Source of the DNA: Erysipelotrichaceae bacterium MTC7 | GTDB taxonomy: Bacteria > Bacillota_I > Bacilli_A > Erysipelotrichales > Erysipelotrichaceae | Assembly: GCA_001695645.1 (NCBI GenBank) | Contig: LVZN01000056.1 | Span: 60,001-92,000 of the forward strand | DNA: 32,000 nt | Direction of reading: 5' to 3' | Shown: in pieces, positions 1,928 through 25,268 of the stretch | How positions within the stretch are numbered: the first letter of the stretch is position 1 | How the letters are laid out: each line of letters starts with the position of its first letter | Made by a program: the position numbers and the translations under genes | The notes under the pieces: generated by a model | Seen by the model: only the letters and a program-made list of their open reading frames with translations | The model's database searches: none | What the model was told of the DNA's origin: nothing

Positions 1928-4012
1928 TTATGCTTCTTTCGCTTTTCTAGCTTTCTCGATGATTTGGTCCTTCATTGCATTAGGAATCTCATCATAGCGA
2001 TCAAATTCTTGCGTATAATGTCCACGTCCTTGTGTACATGCACGTAAAATTGTTGGGAAATCAAGAATTTCCGCTAACGGTGCAGTTGCTGTAATTACTT
2101 GTTTTCCATCTTCAAGGTCCATCGAAATAATCATTCCTCTTCGCTTGTTGATTTCACCAATTACATTTCCTGTATATTCATCAGGAACTACAATACGTAA
2201 GTTCATGATTGGTTCAAGTAAAACTGGGTTTGCTTTAGGAATTCCATCTTTATAAGCTAAACTTGCCGCTAATTTAAATGACAGCTCATTCGAGTCTACA
2301 TCATGATATTTTCCATCATATAGCACCGCTTTTACATTTACCATTTTATAACCAGCAAGCAGTCCAGTTTCCATCGCTTCGCGAAGTCCCGTTTCAACTG
2401 CTGGGAAGTATCCTTTTGGAACAGCTCCACCAACAACGCGTGTTTCAAAAACCATTTCTTCTTCATCAGGGTTTGGCATAAATTCAATGAAGACATGTCC
2501 AAATTGTCCATGACCTCCGGATTGCTTTTTATGACGACCTTCCGCTTCCACTTTCTTTTTAATCGTTTCACGGTATTGTACCTTTGGATCACTCAATTCC
2601 ACATCGACTTTGTAGCGGTTTTTCATTTTATTAACAATCACTTCAAAGTGTTGTTCTCCAACTCCGTATAATACAATTTGCTTTGTCTCTTTGTTATTGT
2701 CAATCCAAGTTGTTTGATCTTCTTCTAAAACCTTTTGTAAGGCTCCATTTACCTTATCATCATCAGCTTTTGTTTTTGGACGAATCGCGTGACCAAGCAG
2801 TCCTTTAGTAAACTGTATTTCTTCAGCAACGAAATGTTTACCTTTATCACAAAGTGTATCGTTTGTTTGTGTAAATTGCAATTTACTAACCGCTCCAATA
2901 TCACCAGTAAACAGTTTTCCTACAGCCGTTTGGTGCTTTCCTTTAATAATATAAATCTGAGAAATCTTTTCAATCTCATCTTTCTTAGGATTGTATACAG
3001 TCGTATCACTTGTCAGGGTTCCACTTAAGACTTTTAAGAATGAAATCTTACCAACAAACGGGTCAACAATCGTTTTAAAAACCAACGCACTAAGTGTTTC
3101 ATCTTCTGCGGTTTGCACTTCCACTGGTTCATCTTTTTCTGTATCAAGTAACGTAATCGTTCCTTGTTCTCCATATGTTGGGAAATACTTCACAATCAAA
3201 TCCATCAAACGTTCGATTCCAACAGATAATGTCGCAGATCCACTAAACACAGGAACAATATCTCCATTACGAACACCAATACGAACCCCTTTGGTCAATT
3301 GTGCTTCTGTGAATTCTTCACCACTGAAGTATTTTTCCATCAACTCATCGTCACCCATTGCAACCGTTTCTGCAATTTGCGCTTTGTATGTATCAACAAT
3401 ATCACGATAGTCATCTGGTACATCATAGGCAGTCTCACGACTTGCTTTTTCACCTTTAAAATACCAAACTTTATCACGTAAAATATTAATGGAACCAATG
3501 ACTTCTCCATTTTCTAAAATTGGCATCTCAAATGGGATAACCGATTTTCCAAAGGTGTCACGTAATGCACTGTATGTTTCTTCAAACGATGTATGATCTT
3601 CATCCAATTTATTGATAAAGAAAATTGCTGGAATCTTTTTCGATTTTGCTGCTTCCCATGCATTGATGGTTCCTGGTTGCACTTTATCTTTTGCACTAAC
3701 GATAATTAGTGCATTATCACAAACTTCCATTGCAGCTTCTTGTTCTCCAATATAATCGAGATATCCTGGAGTATCTAAAAAGTTAATCTTATAATCTTGC
3801 CATTCAATTGGCACAACGGACGTGTAGATGGACATGCCTCGTGCAATTTCTTCACTGTCGTAGTCAATAAGTGAACTTCCTTCACTTGTTTTCCCAAAGC
3901 GATCACTTGCTTTGGTGAAATAAAGCATGGCTTCTAGGATCGAGGTTTTTCCTGATCCGCTATGTCCAAGTACGGCTACGTTGCGAATCTCACTTGATTT
4001 ATAATCTCTCAT
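1928..4012 (-). CDS. elongation factor G-like translational GTPase (EF-G paralogue type)
   Basis: 694 aa with the five-domain EF-G length. Motifs: G1 GHSGSGKTS, G3 DTPGYLDY (Tyr where canonical EF-G has the catalytic His of DTPGH), G4 NKLD. SD GAGGGGA sits in the 11-nt gap after the ankyrin gene. Confidence 0.9.
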   Translation of the reverse strand: MRDYKSSEIRNVAVLGHSGSGKTSILEAMLYFTKASDRFGKTSEGSSLIDYDSEEIARGMSIYTSVVPIEWQDYKINFLDTPGYLDYIGEQEAAMEVCDNALIIVSAKDKVQPGTINAWEAAKSKKIPAIFFINKLDEDHTSFEETYSALRDTFGKSVIPFEMPILENGEVIGSINILRDKVWYFKGEKASRETAYDVPDDYRDIVDTYKAQIAETVAMGDDELMEKYFSGEEFTEAQLTKGVRIGVRNGDIVPVFSGSATLSVGIERLMDLIVKYFPTYGEQGTITLLDTEKDEPVEVQTAEDETLSALVFKTIVDPFVGKISFLKVLSGTLTSDTTVYNPKKDEIEKISQIYIIKGKHQTAVGKLFTGDIGAVSKLQFTQTNDTLCDKGKHFVAEEIQFTKGLLGHAIRPKTKADDDKVNGALQKVLEEDQTTWIDNNKETKQIVLYGVGEQHFEVIVNKMKNRYKVDVELSDPKVQYRETIKKKVEAEGRHKKQSGGHGQFGHVFIEFMPNPDEEEMVFETRVVGGAVPKGYFPAVETGLREAMETGLLAGYKMVNVKAVLYDGKYHDVDSNELSFKLAASLAYKDGIPKANPVLLEPIMNLRIVVPDEYTGNVIGEINKRRGMIISMDLEDGKQVITATAPLAEILDFPTILRACTQGRGHYTQEFDRYDEIPNAMKDQIIEKARKAKEA

Positions 4013-19732: not shown

Positions 19733-19992
19733 CAAAAAAAACCTTCATCCAAAGGACGAAAGTTTACCTTACGTGGTTCCACCTTTTTTTATTGGTACTT
19801 CGCAGCACCAACCTCTTCGAGTACTATCATACTCTAGCAAGATAACGGTTGCAGGGACACCGATGAAGACTACTTACGTTCACCTTCATAACTCCAAGAC
19901 GTGTTCACAGTTTTGCCAATCTTCTTTTTCACCAACCAAGAAGTCTCTACGTTTATTAAAACCGTTACTATTTCTTATCATCGTTTATTGTT
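19733..19992 (-). promoter_or_regulatory. T-box riboswitch leader, His specifier (CAC)
   Basis: Read on the minus strand. Stem I has AGAGA, the helix CTTCTT...AAGAAG and the distal GGTTGGTGAAA. The specifier loop is GAA-CAC-G, with CAC at 19903..19901. The T-box is AAAGGTGGAACCACG (19783..19772). The terminator is CTTTCGTCC-TTT-GGATGAAGG (19762..19742) followed by T8, then an AGGAGG SD. Confidence 0.88.
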
Positions 19993-19998
19993 AGCATC

Positions 19999-20027
19999 AT
20001 TATAAGATTTCTTTTTATGATTGTCAA
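19999..20027 (-). promoter_or_regulatory. consensus sigma-A promoter of the his operon
   Basis: On the minus strand: TTGACA (20027..20022), exactly 17 nt, then TATAAT (20004..19999). Both hexamers match consensus perfectly. Confidence 0.8.
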
Positions 20028-20060: not shown

Positions 20061-20090
20061 ATAAAATAGAAAACCAGATTTCTCTGGTTT
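20061..20090 (-). terminator. rho-independent terminator closing the PCAT locus
   Basis: On the minus strand: AAACCAGA-GAAA-TCTGGTTT (8-bp stem, 20090..20071), then TCTATTTTAT. It begins 8 nt after the stop of the 111-aa gene. Confidence 0.6.
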
Positions 20091-20097
20091 CTTTGAA

Positions 20098-20433
20098 CTA
20101 AAGATAACTAGCCCAACGTGGGGTTCTGCCCCATGGCATGGTATGGAAATATACGCGAATTCCATTTCCATTAGCTCCATTCTTGAAGACTTTTGCCGCT
20201 CCTCCAAGAACGGTCGCAATGGCTGTTGCATAAGGTGCAGCTGCAGCACAGAAGTAAGCAATGGCACTAGAAACAGTTGATCCAACACTCAACCACCAAG
20301 AGATGTTTTTACAATCCGTTTTTGTCATTGTATACGTCCATTGTGCATGGCCAACATTTGTCCAATACCCTTGTCCATAACGTTCTTGTTGTAAGGATAA
20401 AGCAGCATAATGTTTAGGTAAAATAAGTTCCAT
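20098..20433 (-). CDS. 111-aa cationic Trp/Tyr-rich protein with Ala/Gly/Ser-rich hydrophobic core; candidate exported cargo (bacteriocin-like), family not recognised
   Basis: Strong SD AAAGGAGGA lies before the ATG. It is the last gene of the PCAT locus. It has 6 Trp, 8 Tyr, 9 K/R and 3 D/E. Residues 46-83 (WWLSVGSTVSSAIAYFCAAAAPYATAIATVLGGAAKVF) form small-xxx-small ladders. Confidence 0.75.
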   Translation of the reverse strand: MELILPKHYAALSLQQERYGQGYWTNVGHAQWTYTMTKTDCKNISWWLSVGSTVSSAIAYFCAAAAPYATAIATVLGGAAKVFKNGANGNGIRVYFHTMPWGRTPRWASYL

Positions 20434-20452
20434 GGTTCCTCCTTTCTAAGCG

Positions 20453-20475
20453 AGGTGCTCACCTTATATTCACCT
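20453..20475. promoter_or_regulatory. clustered AGGTG/CACCT motifs upstream of the 111-aa gene (possible operator)
   Basis: The plus strand reads AGGTG-ct-CACCT-tatat-tCACCT. That is an inverted repeat (20453..20464) plus a direct repeat of TCACCT with an 11-bp period (20459..20464 and 20470..20475). It lies 20-40 nt upstream of the start codon. Confidence 0.3.
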
Positions 20476-20478
20476 GAT

Positions 20479-20505
20479 AAAAAAAGAATCCTAAGATTCT
20501 TTTTT
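20479..20505 (-). terminator. AT-rich terminator-like hairpin between the HlyD gene and the 111-aa gene
   Basis: On the minus strand: AAGAATC-TTAG-GATTCTT, a 7-bp stem extendable through flanking A/T runs, followed by T5+. It starts right at the HlyD stop codon. Confidence 0.45.
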
Positions 20506-21724
20506 AGTAAGTAGTTTCCTTCAGTTGCAAAAGTGTAAGTAGATAATCCACATAGGTTTCTTCTTCATAGATGATTTTACAAGTCACGGGCATCCCTTTT
20601 TTTAATTGTTGAAAACTCTTGGTATCCTTAACTTTTGGATAATTCATCATCACCAGCATACGATACACAAGTTGCCTACCTTCAGCACTATCTTGAGATA
20701 AGCTTCCTTGATCAATTGAGGTTACCATACCAGGAATACTTGGATATACATTGGAGTTCAAGCCATTCAATTCAATCAAGACTGGTTGACCAACTTTGAC
20801 TTTGGCAATTTCATTGGCATCAATATACGTTTCGACAACCCATTTTTTTGGTTCGTTTTCACTTATTTGGGCAATGACTCCATTGCTTTGAATGCTAAGT
20901 CCTTCATACATTGGGTTTAGATAATGCACATACCCTTCATTGCTAGCACGTATGACATAGGTCGATGCACTAGTTGATGCTAAAAGTGTATTGCTTTCCA
21001 GTTCTTGTTTTTGCGTTTCTACTTGCGTTCTTTGCGTCCCCAATTCACTAACAAATTGATAAAATAGTTTCTCGCTTTGCGGTACGTTTTGCAGTTCTTG
21101 TTGCAACTGTTTGATTTCTTCTTGAATATTTTCTAAACTTGCTTGTTTTGCTTCTTGTTCCAAGGAATCTGTAGTTTTCGACAGGGCTTGTTGTTCCTTG
21201 TGAAGCTTTTCTTTTTTCAGTGCTAAATTTTCCTGAACACGTTGCTTGGTTACTTGCTCTTCAGCTAACTGCAATAAGTAGTATTCCACTTTCCCATAAT
21301 ATTCTTGTTGTAGTCCTTTGTTTTGTAAGTGGTTTGTTTTTTCACGTAACGACTGTTCATACAAATCCATAATGGATAATTTCTCTTTGGTCTGTGCGTA
21401 CTGGTCATGTAATGCTTCTACTTCGCTTCCATTTTTTCCATCACTTAATACCAATAAGATTTCACCCGTCTTGATATAATCACCCTCATTTGCTTCAATG
21501 GAAACAACCACACCTTGTGCATTACTGCTCACATAATGATTCTCTTTAGAAACAATACTTCCTTGACCGTAAACCACATAGGGTTTTGTAAAACGTGTAA
21601 TCGCGATTCCAAAACCAATCATAAATAGTAATGTGATTAGGAGGGTATATATGGCGTATTTGGGTGGCTTACGATCAAAGAAAAATCGTGTATAGGTTAA
21701 ATCATGAATGTTGAATAATTTCAC
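20504..21724 (-). CDS. HlyD-family bacteriocin secretion accessory protein (LcnD/ComB type membrane fusion protein)
   Basis: 406 aa. It has an N-terminal TM helix (YAIYTLLITLLFMIGFGIAI), a barrel-sandwich segment (G.I..G..LL), a long Q/E-rich coiled coil and a C-terminal beta domain. The GTG start is preceded by GAAGGGG. Confidence 0.9.
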   Translation of the reverse strand: MKLFNIHDLTYTRFFFDRKPPKYAIYTLLITLLFMIGFGIAITRFTKPYVVYGQGSIVSKENHYVSSNAQGVVVSIEANEGDYIKTGEILLVLSDGKNGSEVEALHDQYAQTKEKLSIMDLYEQSLREKTNHLQNKGLQQEYYGKVEYYLLQLAEEQVTKQRVQENLALKKEKLHKEQQALSKTTDSLEQEAKQASLENIQEEIKQLQQELQNVPQSEKLFYQFVSELGTQRTQVETQKQELESNTLLASTSASTYVIRASNEGYVHYLNPMYEGLSIQSNGVIAQISENEPKKWVVETYIDANEIAKVKVGQPVLIELNGLNSNVYPSIPGMVTSIDQGSLSQDSAEGRQLVYRMLVMMNYPKVKDTKSFQQLKKGMPVTCKIIYEEETYVDYLLTLLQLKETTY

Positions 21725-22184
21725 GACTTGCCCCTTCTAATGGAACATACATAACTGCGTGTATACACGTTTCTGAGTTTTCATAAAATAAAGTATACAA
21801 TTCGCCTGTACTGACATACTCATGCTCATACAAGTACACACTGAGTTTTTGGTGCGATAGATCAAAAAACCTTGGATGATCACAAAACTCGACACGTAAA
21901 CAGTTCTCTAGTGAAATTGAGGCTATTGTTTCAAACCCAGGTGTATCGTGTTCGCTTTGCACCATCAGGATGTAATCCAGTAATAAATCACCTTGTCCAG
22001 TAAACGTGCTACCACAGAGTTTATGTATCAACGGTCCTGTAGTTTGAACCTTTTGTAGCTGGATGCGATTGATAAATTGTTGTAAATAACGTTCAAATTC
22101 GTATACTTGAATTTGTTTGATGTTTTCTATTGCAAGCTGGGTAAACACGATGGATTCATGTTCAGTAATTTTTATTTGTTTCAT
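21702..22184 (-). CDS. GyrI/SbmC-like (small-molecule-binding fold) protein, 160 aa
   Basis: I chose the ATG at 22184, right after AAAAGGAGGA and 10 nt past the PCAT stop. By eye it aligns with E. coli SbmC along the whole length (IKITEHESIVF..., FERYLQQF..., LLLDYILMV, GFETIASI, YLYEHEY, ELYTLFYEN, HAVMYVPLE). The fold call has not been verified by search. Confidence 0.6.
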   Translation of the reverse strand: MKQIKITEHESIVFTQLAIENIKQIQVYEFERYLQQFINRIQLQKVQTTGPLIHKLCGSTFTGQGDLLLDYILMVQSEHDTPGFETIASISLENCLRVEFCDHPRFFDLSHQKLSVYLYEHEYVSTGELYTLFYENSETCIHAVMYVPLEGASREIIQHS

Positions 22185-22194
22185 AATCCTCCTT

Positions 22195-24357
22195 TTATTG
22201 TCTTTCAAGCATTCGATAGTAATATCCTTTGCGAAGATACAATTCATCATGATTTCCTGACTCCAATACACGTCCACTGGTTAATACATGAATCACATCA
22301 CACTTACGAACCGTGGAAAGTCGATGCGCAATCACAATACGTGTATAACCGGCAAGTTGATTGAAGATGACATCACTGATCAATGCTTCGCTTTGGCTAT
22401 CTAAGTTACTTGTTACTTCATCAAAGACGTAGATATCTGGTTTCTTCAATAATGCACGTGCAATCCCAATGCGTTGTTTTTGTCCACCAGATATATTGCT
22501 TGCACCTTCTTGTAAGATACTTAAATAGCGATGTTCAAGCCCATCAATCCATTCATGAATTCCGACTTGCTTACATACACGAACAATTTCTTCAAAACTT
22601 ACATCAGGGTTCGCAAGTTTTAGATTGTCCAAAATGGTACCAGAAAATAGTTGAACTTCTTGTGGAACATAGGCAATCTTGTTTCGCAGCGTTTGTAAGT
22701 TTAGATCTTTAATGTTGTAATTACCAATGGTAATATGCCCATCTCCTACTTCATAGTAGCGCAGCAACAAGCGAACCAATGTCGTTTTCCCACCACCACT
22801 ATCACCAACCAAACCAACGACTTCTCCCGGTTTGAAACTAAGATTTAAACTTTGAAATAACGGTTTGTGTTTTTGATAGCCAAATTGTACCTGGGTAAAA
22901 TGAATCATTTTATCCAATGTAAAAGTATCAATACTTGCTTCTTGGTGTTCCTCACTTTCTAATTCCATAAGTTCACGTAGTCGTGAAATAGATATGCTAA
23001 CTTCTTGAAAACGCAACTGTAAGGACACGAGACTTTGAATCGGTTCCATAAAATATTGAGACAACGTTTGAAAAACTAGCAAGTCACCAATGCTCATTTT
23101 TTGTTGCATAATAAAGTACGCTCCGACCCCTAAAAACAAATAGTTGCACAAACCATTAATGGAATTTGCTAGAAAGGATTGCAAGATGGATAGTTTTCCC
23201 TCCTGATAACCAATCGTCAATGTTTTAATAAAATTTTGTTCAATTTGCATCAAACGAAGTTGTTCATTGTTTTGCGACTTGACCGTATCCATGTTTTGCA
23301 AGGTTTCCACCAATGTTGCATTCATTTGTGAATTGGTTTCCATTTGTTTCACGTTGATTGCTTTGTATGGCTTTTTAAAAACATAGATTAAGACAATGTT
23401 AATACAAACAATAACTAACAAGATTAGAAACAACGTTTGATTCAAGCGGAATAAAATCAGTGATGAACACAAAGCTAACACGATGTCCATCAACAAAGAA
23501 ATAGCAACATTAGAAAAAACTTCTTTAATTGTGATGGCATCTTGAAAACGTGTCAAAATATCTCCTACTTTGCGATTTTTAAAGTACCCGTAAGGTAGAT
23601 ACAAAACGTGTTTAAAATAACCTAGTAACAATGGAATATCAATTTTTCTAGAGAAAAATAACAAGACATGTTCACGTGCTGCACTCAAAAGATTTTGAAG
23701 CAACAAGATAAAACAGAAAAATACCAAATACATGATGAGTAATTGACCTCGGTTGTATGGAATAATTTCATCCATCACAATTTTTGAAAACAGAGAAGAT
23801 AATAACCCCAATACAGTCAAGAGTATCGACATGACTATGACTTGTATGACCAGTTTCTTATGTGGCAAAATCAGTGATGAAAACAAGGTTAGCAACGAAT
23901 GACTTTTCATGGCATCTCTTGTCACTTCTTGATTTTTCACCAACACAATCACAATTCCACCAAACATTGTCTCGAGTTCCATTTTACTCACTTTGCAAAC
24001 ACCTTTGAGTGGATCAGCTAGTATGTATTGATCATTCTTACAAATCTTATAAAGCAAAACATAATGCCACTGTCCACTTTCATTACTTACTTGTAAGATG
24101 ATTGGAAAATTCATCTTTTCATGTAAGTCATTGATACTTGTTCGCACTGCCTGTGCTAAATATCCATGTCCCTGTAAGGTTTCCACCATACCTTCGATGT
24201 TGGTTCCACGCAATTGAACACCAACTTCTTCACGTAAGGTTTCATAACTATACGCGACACCATCGTGTTGAAATACACTTGCGATAACTGCAACACCACA
24301 ATCGTAATCATCCCTTTGATAAACACAAGTGTATCGTTTTTTACGAATCAGGTTCAT
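22195..24357 (-). CDS. peptidase-containing ABC transporter (PCAT): C39 peptidase + 6-TM + ABC ATPase
   Basis: 720 aa. The C39 residues are Q14 and C20 (VYQRDDYDCGVAVIA), His (GQWHYVLL) and Asp (LADP). The ATPase has Walker A GDSGGGKTT, signature ISGGQKQR, Walker B IYVFDE and H-loop IAHRLST. Confidence 0.95.
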   Translation of the reverse strand: MNLIRKKRYTCVYQRDDYDCGVAVIASVFQHDGVAYSYETLREEVGVQLRGTNIEGMVETLQGHGYLAQAVRTSINDLHEKMNFPIILQVSNESGQWHYVLLYKICKNDQYILADPLKGVCKVSKMELETMFGGIVIVLVKNQEVTRDAMKSHSLLTLFSSLILPHKKLVIQVIVMSILLTVLGLLSSLFSKIVMDEIIPYNRGQLLIMYLVFFCFILLLQNLLSAAREHVLLFFSRKIDIPLLLGYFKHVLYLPYGYFKNRKVGDILTRFQDAITIKEVFSNVAISLLMDIVLALCSSLILFRLNQTLFLILLVIVCINIVLIYVFKKPYKAINVKQMETNSQMNATLVETLQNMDTVKSQNNEQLRLMQIEQNFIKTLTIGYQEGKLSILQSFLANSINGLCNYLFLGVGAYFIMQQKMSIGDLLVFQTLSQYFMEPIQSLVSLQLRFQEVSISISRLRELMELESEEHQEASIDTFTLDKMIHFTQVQFGYQKHKPLFQSLNLSFKPGEVVGLVGDSGGGKTTLVRLLLRYYEVGDGHITIGNYNIKDLNLQTLRNKIAYVPQEVQLFSGTILDNLKLANPDVSFEEIVRVCKQVGIHEWIDGLEHRYLSILQEGASNISGGQKQRIGIARALLKKPDIYVFDEVTSNLDSQSEALISDVIFNQLAGYTRIVIAHRLSTVRKCDVIHVLTSGRVLESGNHDELYLRKGYYYRMLERQ

Positions 24358-24514
24358 CGTATTTTCGTATAAGCATCAAGGAAATAAACATGATAAGCGT
24401 AAAAAGAAAAATAAGATTTGTGTATTGTAAAGGAATGATTTGAAAGGTCACTAACAATCCTGTTCCAATTGCCAGCCAACTGCTCATTTGATAAACGATA
24501 TGTATGTATTTCAT
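24341..24514 (-). CDS. 57-aa two-TM membrane protein (candidate immunity or accessory protein)
   Basis: MKYIHIVYQMSSWLAIGTGLLVTFQIIPLQYTNLIFLFTLIMFISLMLIRKYDEPDS. The ATG at 24514 is 6 nt after GGAGG. The 3' end overlaps the PCAT start by 17 nt. The longer ORF-track version runs through a terminator. Confidence 0.6.
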   Translation of the reverse strand: MKYIHIVYQMSSWLAIGTGLLVTFQIIPLQYTNLIFLFTLIMFISLMLIRKYDEPDS

Positions 24515-24562
24515 AGAAAACCTCCGTTCACTTATGTATTGGTAAAAACACGTAGATTTCCT

Positions 24563-24594
24563 AAAAAAAAGAAGCCACTCTACTGAGTAGCTTC
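24563..24594 (-). terminator. rho-independent terminator after the GntR gene
   Basis: 10-bp stem with one mismatch (24571..24580 and 24585..24594) and a 4-nt loop. On the minus strand it is followed by T8. Confidence 0.7.
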
Positions 24595-24599
24595 CATGT

Positions 24600-25268
24600 T
24601 TATGTAACAATTTCAATCACTTTTTCAACTGGGTTATTGTAGACCTTCATAAAAATCACTGGTTCTCCACTGATGCGATTCACAATGTTTTCAACCAAAA
24701 TAAGTGGTTCATTCACGCGCACGTTTAACATATGTGCATACTGTGGCGGAACCATCACCGGTTTAAACCGCGAAGTTAAACTTCCTTCACTGTAAAGTTT
24801 GTTGAAATCTTTCCAGTTTGGTAGATTTCTAAGTTCTTCATCACTTAAATTCAAGCGACGAATATAGATTTCTTCAATACACTGTGGTCTTCCTTCTTTA
24901 CTAACAAGTCGAATCATTCGTACCACAGGTTCATCATCATTGATCCGCAAAGCGGTTTGGACATCATCTCCACTACTCGCTTTCACATCAAAGTAAATAA
25001 TCTTATAGGTAAGTTGTTCAATATCATCAGTTGCTGTTAACGTATTCTTCTTGTGAAGGGTACTATCTGCGACGAAAGTTCCACGATTACTTTCACGATA
25101 AAGATATCCCTCATCCACCAACGCTTCTACTGCTTTTCGCACAGTCATTCGACTTGCATCAAACCGTTTTGTAAGGTCTCTTTCACTTGGTATTGGTGAA
25201 TTGGGTGGTAGATCTTTAATCATTTCAAGCATTTCTTGTTGGATTTTCTTATATACTGGAACATCCAT
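24600..25268 (-). CDS. GntR-family (HutC subfamily, UTRA domain) transcriptional regulator
   Basis: The winged HTH is PSERDLTKRFDASRMTVRKAVEALVDEGYL. It is followed by a ~140-aa UTRA-like effector domain. Confidence 0.9.
   Translation of the reverse strand: MDVPVYKKIQQEMLEMIKDLPPNSPIPSERDLTKRFDASRMTVRKAVEALVDEGYLYRESNRGTFVADSTLHKKNTLTATDDIEQLTYKIIYFDVKASSGDDVQTALRINDDEPVVRMIRLVSKEGRPQCIEEIYIRRLNLSDEELRNLPNWKDFNKLYSEGSLTSRFKPVMVPPQYAHMLNVRVNEPLILVENIVNRISGEPVIFMKVYNNPVEKVIEIVT

Follow-up and report, generated by a model that had tools for sequence, protein, structure and literature searches.

We examined a stretch of 32,000 nucleotides from Erysipelotrichaceae bacterium MTC7 (contig LVZN01000056.1, positions 60,001 to 92,000), called the window in what follows, which carries an operon of five genes, all on the (-) strand. 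In order, these encode a protein of 57 amino acids (aa) with two transmembrane (TM) segments, a C39-ABC transporter (720 aa), a 160-aa protein, a HlyD-like protein (406 aa) and, as the fifth and final gene, the 111-aa protein that is the subject of this report. A first-pass annotation, made from the letters alone, had proposed that this last protein is a cargo of the adjacent C39-ABC/HlyD exporter. The comparisons described here bear this out: the 111-aa protein is very probably exporter cargo, because its distant homologues possess a double-glycine (GG) leader at the homologous position and are encoded in the same slot after the HlyD gene.

The gene is real and under selection. Its reading frame comprises 111 codons from ATG to stop on the (-) strand, and the (+) frame of the same coordinates is riddled with stops; the open reading frame (ORF) and translation given in the first-pass annotation are identical to ours, with only the strand left unstated. 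The Shine–Dalgarno sequence of the gene is unchanged in Breznakia. The operon lies downstream of a GntR gene and the GntR terminator (24570-24595), and no modification enzyme is encoded among its five genes. Coordinates are collected in Table 1.

Table 1. Features of the operon and its surroundings, numbered by position in the window.
Feature	Position	Strand	Details
Precursor gene, 111 aa	20098..20433	(-)	Stop codon (20098-20100) included; OCN03833.1, A4S06_04510, annotated 'hypothetical protein'
Leader region, codons 1-22	20368..20433	(-)	MELILPKHYAALSLQQERYGQG; from alignments with relatives
Predicted mature core, residues 23-111	20101..20367	(-)	89 aa, 9.76 kDa (9,757 Da), isoelectric point 9.7, net charge +6
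Shine–Dalgarno sequence	20438..20445	(-)	AAAGGAGG; read from the sequence, 4 bases 5' of the ATG
Terminator-like hairpin, operon end	20070..20091	(-)	Directly 3' of the cargo stop codon
Spacer between HlyD and cargo genes, 70 nucleotides	20434..20503	(-)	Conserved; palindrome/hairpin AAAAGAATCTTAGGATTCTTTT and TATAAG box
HlyD-family membrane-fusion / bacteriocin accessory protein, 406 aa	20504..21724	(-)	PF13437, E 4.6e-12
160-aa protein (A4S06_04520)	21702..22184	(-)	Conserved slot between ABC and HlyD genes
C39-ABC transporter (PCAT, 720 aa)	22195..24357	(-)	PF03412 (8e-25), PF00664, PF00005; TIGR01193, 496 bits
Two-TM protein, 57 aa	24341..24514	(-)	MKYIHIVYQ...RKYDEPDS; unannotated; overlaps the ABC start codon by 17 nucleotides
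Promoter of the his operon	19999-20027	(-)	TTGACA-17-TATAAT, perfect sigma-70; past the operon terminator
T-box leader of the his operon	19749-19990	(-)	Rfam, 124 bits

A rare family and its leader

Scans of the 111-aa protein against Pfam, NCBIfam and PHROGs gave no match at E <= 1, neither the single protein nor the family profile retrieved anything meaningful from the PDB sequences (best E 0.28-0.5) and a full-text search of the literature for motifs of the leader and the core brought up no paper on the family. The protein had been described as one that could be assigned to no family and, as far as the curated libraries, the PDB and the literature extend, this holds. Pfam and NCBIfam scans of ten proteins, comprising relatives and proteins that share their leader, produced sub-threshold noise only; the relative P0005 reached 18.8 bits against PF10439 (Bacteriocin_IIc), for which the cut-off is 27.1, and a model of lactococcin G-beta gave a sub-threshold match confined to the relatives' leader.

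A word-indexed search retrieved only the Breznakia orthologue, which is 86% identical and occurs in identical synteny. Remote homologues were sought with an exhaustive HMMER search of 1.84 billion representatives, extended by a profile search, and about 12 relatives were obtained, some with a canonical GG leader; those added by the exhaustive run are 111-120 aa long. Four further matches (P0006, P0008, P0009 and P0010) are long repeat proteins and were treated as spurious. The family is rare, since scans of GTDB genomes and of JGI metagenomes added only three loci each.

In seven distant homologues (P0005, P0014, P0015, P0016, P0007, P0017 and P0011) a leader of the form LPxNYVEIE(E/Q)EEMMY(L/I)(D/E)GG stands directly before YWTHVGHAEW. 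The junction reads MGLMLSLPKRYDEIEEEEMQYIDGG/YWTHVGHAEW in P0005 and ...EEEEMMYLDGG/YWTHVGHAEW in P0016, and in the alignment the end of the leader in these canonical relatives coincides exactly with the start of the conserved core. Their leaders place GG at -2/-1, Ile or Leu at -4, Met at -7, Glu at -8, Ile at -12 and Tyr at -15. Leaders of this type end in GG, GA or GS and form an amphipathic helix in which positions -4, -7 and -12 (and -15) must be hydrophobic and -8 is often Glu; with LahT150, Lys or Asp at -4 or -7 abolishes or strongly impairs cleavage (PMC6363468).

The MTC7 protein shares the N-terminal part of this leader, the box MELxLPKxY, and is degenerate in the C-terminal half, where G20-Q21-G22 replaces D-G-G. 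That its leader lacks GG, with the glycine pair interrupted by Gln, and that its sole GG is internal, at residues 77-78, had both been noted correctly; the internal GG is not conserved among the relatives. If cleavage is taken to occur after G22, then Tyr, an acceptable residue there, occupies -4, Gln both -7 and -8, and Ala -12, with Leu at -11 and -9. The leader of Breznakia blatticola, which ends in A-Q-G, retains Phe at -4 and Leu at -7. The leader ends in G-E-G in B. pachnodae, P0004 and P0012, and in G-K-G in Breznakia sp. PF5-3. In every member from a cultured genome the leader is one residue shorter and Gly(-2) is replaced. Each of these loci is flanked by gntR and hisZ, and the change is therefore ancestral to the MTC7/Breznakia clade and vertically inherited. 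The net charge of the leader is 0 in MTC7, compared with -5/-6 in the canonical relatives. A profile hidden Markov model (HMM) built from 30 canonical leaders found no other leader-bearing ORF in the window.

The 23-residue leader MELVLPxNYVEIEQEEMMYLDGG was also found, nearly invariant, before many unrelated hydrophobic cores of 60-105 residues in Helcococcus and in metagenomes (such proteins include P0019-P0041). In Helcococcus ovis (locus L012) several of them are encoded in one locus, between the C39-ABC gene and the genes for a 155-aa protein and HlyD. This is how a shared export leader with shuffled cargos usually presents itself. None of the curated models in Pfam and NCBIfam covers this leader or the proteins carrying it and, to our knowledge, the leaders of ComC, LcnA and pediocin lack the additional, strongly conserved N-terminal box MELVLPxNY.

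The mature core: conservation, selection and predicted fold

The core is marked by two conserved motifs, YWTHVGHAEWTxT and NG[ILF]R[VI]YFHTMxWGR[TQ]PRW. Across 12 relatives conservation is strongest in the flanks, at Y23, W24, H29, W32, G91, R93, Y95, F96, H97 and W101, and in the C-terminal flank also at R103, P105, R106 and W107; these aromatic flanks are more conserved than the small-residue centre between them.

Selection was assessed by comparing MTC7 with the B. blatticola-type orthologue. In the core (codons 23-111) the proportion of synonymous differences (pS) is 0.74, which is saturated, that of non-synonymous differences (pN) is 0.043 and the ratio of the two substitution rates (dN/dS) is ~0.015, with 93% aa identity; the counts are 45 synonymous and about 9 non-synonymous differences. 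The leader (codons 1-22) gives a pS of 0.54, a pN of 0.24, a dN/dS of ~0.30 and 55% identity. The operon partners are 76% (ABC), 70% (HlyD), 75% (160-aa) and 68% (57-aa) identical in the same comparison, and the housekeeping neighbours range from 73% to 97%. The substitution pattern indicates very strong purifying selection on the 89-aa core, on par with the best-conserved neighbours. Such constraint is unusual for a bacteriocin, and a role other than that of a weapon therefore stays in play.

With 13 family sequences, AlphaFold2 produced a model with a mean predicted local distance difference test score (pLDDT) of 82.4 and a predicted template-modelling score (pTM) of 0.69; with two sequences only, the result (pLDDT 36) was unusable. 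The predicted elements are a β-hairpin at residues 24-36 (strands 24-27 and 31-36), helices 38-61 and 63-88, and strands 92-95 and 108-110. In this model the helices form a hairpin, the open end of which is closed by an aromatic and cationic sheet drawn from both flanks. A helical hairpin between β-rich aromatic flanks is what the first-pass annotation had envisaged, and the prediction agrees with it. It had attributed the hairpin to a break at Pro67, which the model contradicts: the turn is predicted at C62/A63, Pro67 lies in the first turn of the second helix and is present in only 7/12 relatives. Foldseek found no significant neighbour of the model, the best E being about 1 in the PDB and 0.3 in BFVD. 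The matches were generic helical hairpins (WXG100 and phage two-TM proteins, E >= 0.3) and were rejected as homology.

The first-pass annotation also described a cationic, aromatic-rich composition and continuous ladders of small residues spaced i,i+4 along the centre. A script count returns the same composition (6 Trp, 8 Tyr, 9 Lys/Arg, 3 Asp/Glu), and all 13 residues named in connection with the ladders are correctly placed (G51, S55, A59, A63, A65, A69, A73, G77, A66, T70, T74, G78 and P67). The ladders themselves do not exceed chance for the composition. The 38-residue centre, 21/38 of it small, contains 12 small-xxx-small pairs, against 10.1 +/- 1.6 in shuffles of the same residues, 20% of which reach 12. 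Its longest chain is of four residues, a length reached by 83% of shuffles; only the three chains of four or more, matched by 4.4% of shuffles, are mildly unusual. The idea that the ladders are statistically special in the single sequence was rejected, their frequency being as composition predicts. Their conservation is divided: G51-S55-A59 and A69-A73-G77 stay small among the 12 relatives, and positions 63, 65, 66 and 78 do not. The conserved small positions are 45, 51, 55 and 59 in the first helix and 69, 73, 74, 77 and 80 in the second. It is thus in the aromatic/cationic cap, and not in the ladder, that the functional signature of the protein lies.

The exporter and the loci of relatives

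When aligned to the structures of PCAT1 and ComA, the C39 domain of the transporter has Gln14, Cys20, His98 and Asp115 intact. Cys20 aligns with the catalytic Cys of PCAT1, which is replaced by Ala in PDB entry 7n87, so that a C39-ABC transporter with catalytic Cys and His is encoded in the same operon as the cargo. Six related transporters show no variation in the four catalytic columns. Because these Gln, Cys, His and Asp columns do not vary among the transporters of the clade, we conclude that the exporter has been kept alongside the non-canonical leader. The HlyD-like protein falls under the cut-offs of TIGR01843 and TIGR01000.

The 160-aa protein has no match in Pfam, NCBIfam or PHROGs, and a Pfam scan of seven partners of 155-161 aa was likewise empty. 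All the related loci that were examined (L001, L006, L008, L012, L013 and L015) encode a homologue of 152-161 aa in the same slot, flanked by the ABC and HlyD genes, and the protein seems to be a third, undescribed component of exporters of this type. Among the homologues are those of Helcococcus ovis and of two quorum-regulated metagenomic loci.

A gene for a two-TM protein of 54-59 aa is present in every locus and heads the operon in all Breznakia loci; we regard the 57-aa product in MTC7 as a candidate immunity protein. Its exact sequence is absent from a collection of 15 billion proteins. A 91-aa ORF with a TTG start (24341-24616) was considered as a cargo and rejected, the conserved part of it being the 57-aa protein read from the ATG at 24514.

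The relatives place the MTC7 operon in context. Locus L008, which encodes P0015 with its canonical GG, contains, in this order, a LytTR regulator, a histidine kinase (HK), a C39-ABC transporter, a 157-aa protein, HlyD, the cargo, a 55-aa two-TM ORF and a second GG-leader peptide; by its gene content it is a classic quorum-regulated bacteriocin locus. In L018 (429-981) the HlyD gene is followed by the cargo gene and then by a 55-aa two-TM ORF. The trio of ABC, ~157-aa and HlyD genes recurs in L013, together with a LytTR/HK pair, and in L012 of Helcococcus ovis. Judged from these arrangements, the gene order in the window is characteristic of the exporter type and the 111-aa gene lies in the cargo slot. 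Another arrangement is seen in L019 (824-1818), where two tandem paralogues (P0007 and P0017) precede a 59-aa two-TM ORF; its start overlaps the cargo stop codon (ATGA), a sign that the two are translationally coupled.

The locus is fixed between gntR and hisZ in all Breznakia and MTC7 genomes. In a B. pachnodae-like lineage recovered from two samples (L010 and L011) the ABC, 157-aa and HlyD genes have been cleanly deleted. What remains, at 3651-4146 of L010, is a 54-aa two-TM gene (3791-3955), a 21-codon stump of a 48-aa ORF and an intact cargo gene. Because the small two-TM protein and the cargo both stay after deletion of the transporter, the two seem to be paired in the manner of a toxin and its immunity protein. 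The sample that yielded L010 also contains contig L013, which carries a second exporter of the same type, this one regulated by LytTR/HK. Two other B. pachnodae-like loci have an extra hydrophobic ORF of 48-52 aa between the HlyD and cargo genes (L006 7805-7951 and L015 6786-6944), which is found in neither MTC7 nor B. blatticola.

The spacer between the HlyD and cargo genes, a block of 71 alignment columns, is 91.5% identical to that of B. blatticola, compared with 78% for the cargo gene at the nucleotide level and 72% for the HlyD gene. It may contain an attenuator or operator, plus the cargo gene's own promoter. Its palindrome AAAGAATCTTAGGATTCTTT, for which a hairpin is predicted, is perfect and overlaps the HlyD stop codon, and the TATAAG box comes after it. 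On the other side of the cargo gene, the perfect promoter and the T-box listed in Table 1 control the hisZ-hisG-hisD... operon immediately downstream.

Proposed function and alternative explanations

We consider the 111-aa protein to be the precursor of a class II-type bacteriocin-like protein that is unmodified and belongs to a new family, and would put the probability of this at roughly 0.6. As in class II bacteriocin systems (LcnC/LcnD, ComA/ComB, PCAT1 and LahT), an intact C39-ABC transporter and a HlyD-like accessory protein are encoded in the operon, modification enzymes are absent, the predicted product is cationic and smaller than 10 kDa, and a small two-TM gene is part of the locus; a textbook GG leader is found in the distant homologues, and a LytTR/HK pair accompanies the exporter in L008 and L013. 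The differences are the G-Q-G in place of GG, a core that is more conserved than the leader, the ~157-aa third gene, a mature part of 89 aa, which is about twice the usual length, a predicted fold combining a β-cap with a helical hairpin, and the failure of any Pfam or NCBIfam bacteriocin model to match.

Two subclasses offer structural analogies. In class IIa bacteriocins a conserved cationic β-sheet region is joined to a hydrophobic helical or hairpin region, which is more variable and enters the membrane. The predicted fold would resemble these pediocin-like proteins in joining a β part to a hydrophobic hairpin part, but the YGNGV box is missing, the sheet would be assembled from both termini, the protein is about twice the size and there is no match of sequence or fold. 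In class IIb bacteriocins, pairs of helices pack via small-xxx-small contacts and have aromatic and cationic ends. The helix pair proposed here may be similar to that of lactococcin G or plantaricin EF/JK, except that both helices belong to a single chain and would run antiparallel as a hairpin, that Ala, Ser and Thr make up most of the small residues, and that GxxxG and sequence similarity are both absent. GxxxG motifs in class IIb bacteriocins are also mentioned in work on the Caulobacter Cdz system (PMC5380434).

The protein might act as follows. An N-terminal leader of about 22 residues would be recognized by the C39-ABC transporter, which together with the HlyD-like adaptor and the 160-aa partner would move the protein across the membrane. 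By homology, the leader would be removed between G22 and Y23, to leave a strongly cationic core of 89 residues and 9.76 kDa; the corresponding cores of B. blatticola and B. pachnodae would have masses of 9,713 and 9,893 Da. The two arms of the hairpin, each of about 25 residues, would pack through the small residues 45/51/55/59 against 69/73/77/80. The aromatic-cationic cap would dock on the surface of the target cell, at the membrane interface or a receptor, after which the moderately hydrophobic hairpin would insert into the membrane and disrupt it. Protection of the producer would fall to the 57-aa two-TM protein. The half of the leader nearest the predicted cleavage site has decayed in the MTC7/Breznakia clade, with one residue deleted, the acidity lost and Gly(-2) changed to Gln, Glu or Lys. 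Since the core and the transporter have been kept despite this decay, processing either tolerates a residue other than Gly at P2 or has been given up.

Several points weigh against a bacteriocin-like role. The MTC7 leader ends in none of GG, GA or GS, has Gln at -2, and at -7 and -12 presents Gln and Ala where hydrophobic residues are expected; the leader HMM matches residues 1-10 (MELILPKHYA) of the protein only. A frozen core behind a fast-evolving leader is the reverse of the usual bacteriocin pattern, 89 residues is at the upper size limit for a mature class II bacteriocin, one lineage keeps the cargo gene without a local transporter, and the structural model, derived with 13 sequences, is without structural neighbours.

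The frozen core speaks for an unlikely alternative, though the likeliest of those considered, in which the protein is still exported and has been domesticated as a secreted or surface protein with a physiological role in signalling, the envelope or interaction with the host or community. A role of this kind would account for a frozen core behind a drifting leader: at a dN/dS of ~0.015 and 93% identity the core is conserved like HisG or GntR, above its own transporter. The fixed gntR/hisZ position points to vertical inheritance and away from a mobile bacteriocin island, the LytTR/HK quorum-sensing module of L008 and L013 is absent here, and the gene has been retained after loss of the transporter. 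The canonical relatives, however, come from classic bacteriocin loci, which include quorum-sensing regulators, two-TM genes and several GG peptides. Retention of the two-TM partner together with the cargo is what a toxin/immunity pair would show, and membrane-active peptides typically have a cationic, amphiphilic architecture such as this one.

The same retention, in L010 and L011, together with the Gln at -2, the loss of a hydrophobic residue at -7 and the truncated HMM match, would also suit a protein that is no longer exported and that persists, with a relic leader, as a small integral or peripheral protein of the producer membrane, perhaps serving the transporter as an accessory or immunity component. 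The 38-residue centre of the protein shows moderate hydrophobicity (maximum 19-residue Kyte–Doolittle mean 1.64), although this is marginal for a stable two-TM hairpin. We judge this explanation improbable: the MELxLPKxY box is nearly invariant in the clade, which would not be expected of a functionless relic, the catalytic residues are intact in the transporters of MTC7, B. blatticola and the B. pachnodae-like lineage, and the window offers the exporter no other cargo. The second exporter in the sample of L010, which may stem from the same genome, also counts against it. Very improbable indeed is a contact-dependent glycine-zipper toxin that aggregates on the producer surface, the analogy with the Caulobacter Cdz proteins drawn in the first-pass annotation. 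CdzC and CdzD, of 86 and 84 aa, are exported by an ABC/HlyD-type system and have a small TM immunity protein (PMC5380434), and the 111-aa protein is like them in the size of its predicted core, in being presumably unmodified, in the adjacent ABC/HlyD-type exporter and small TM gene, and in a centre rich in small residues. The Cdz proteins are defined by an extended GxxxGxxxG and a core of which ~75% is Gly and small hydrophobic residues (PMC5380434). The MTC7 core has no GxxxG, nor do 10/12 of the relatives tabulated, and its content of Gly, Ala, Val and Ile is 32/89, or 36%, versus 75%. The host is Gram-positive, there is one cargo gene instead of two, the conserved aromatic and cationic flanks have no Cdz counterpart and no search revealed sequence similarity to Cdz proteins. 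As the defining motif is absent, the glycine-zipper reading was rejected.

A further proposal concerns the exporter and is tentative; we think it rather doubtful. The exporter would still be working on a cargo without GG, the core of which is fixed under constraint of a housekeeping level and not engaged in an arms race. The C39 protease may then cut after Gly/Ala-Xaa-Gly, a specificity at P2 that has not been reported for proteases of this family, or the protein may be exported uncleaved and recognized by its MELxLPKxY box, possibly read by the 160-aa partner.

If confirmed, the bacteriocin-like assignment would establish a new, previously undescribed small family from insect-gut Erysipelotrichaceae, with mature proteins of ~9.7 kDa, and would bring with it a predicted fold that has no structural neighbour, a distinctive shared leader and an uncharacterized third exporter component. 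Cultured strains exist (B. blatticola DSM 28867 and B. pachnodae DSM 16784), so that these ideas are directly testable. The MTC7/Breznakia clade is also a natural experiment on leader recognition by PCATs, in which related GG, G-x-G and A-Q-G cargos each occur with their own intact transporter. A comparison of these cargos could reveal the strictness of the Gly(-2) rule and the part of the leader on which export depends.

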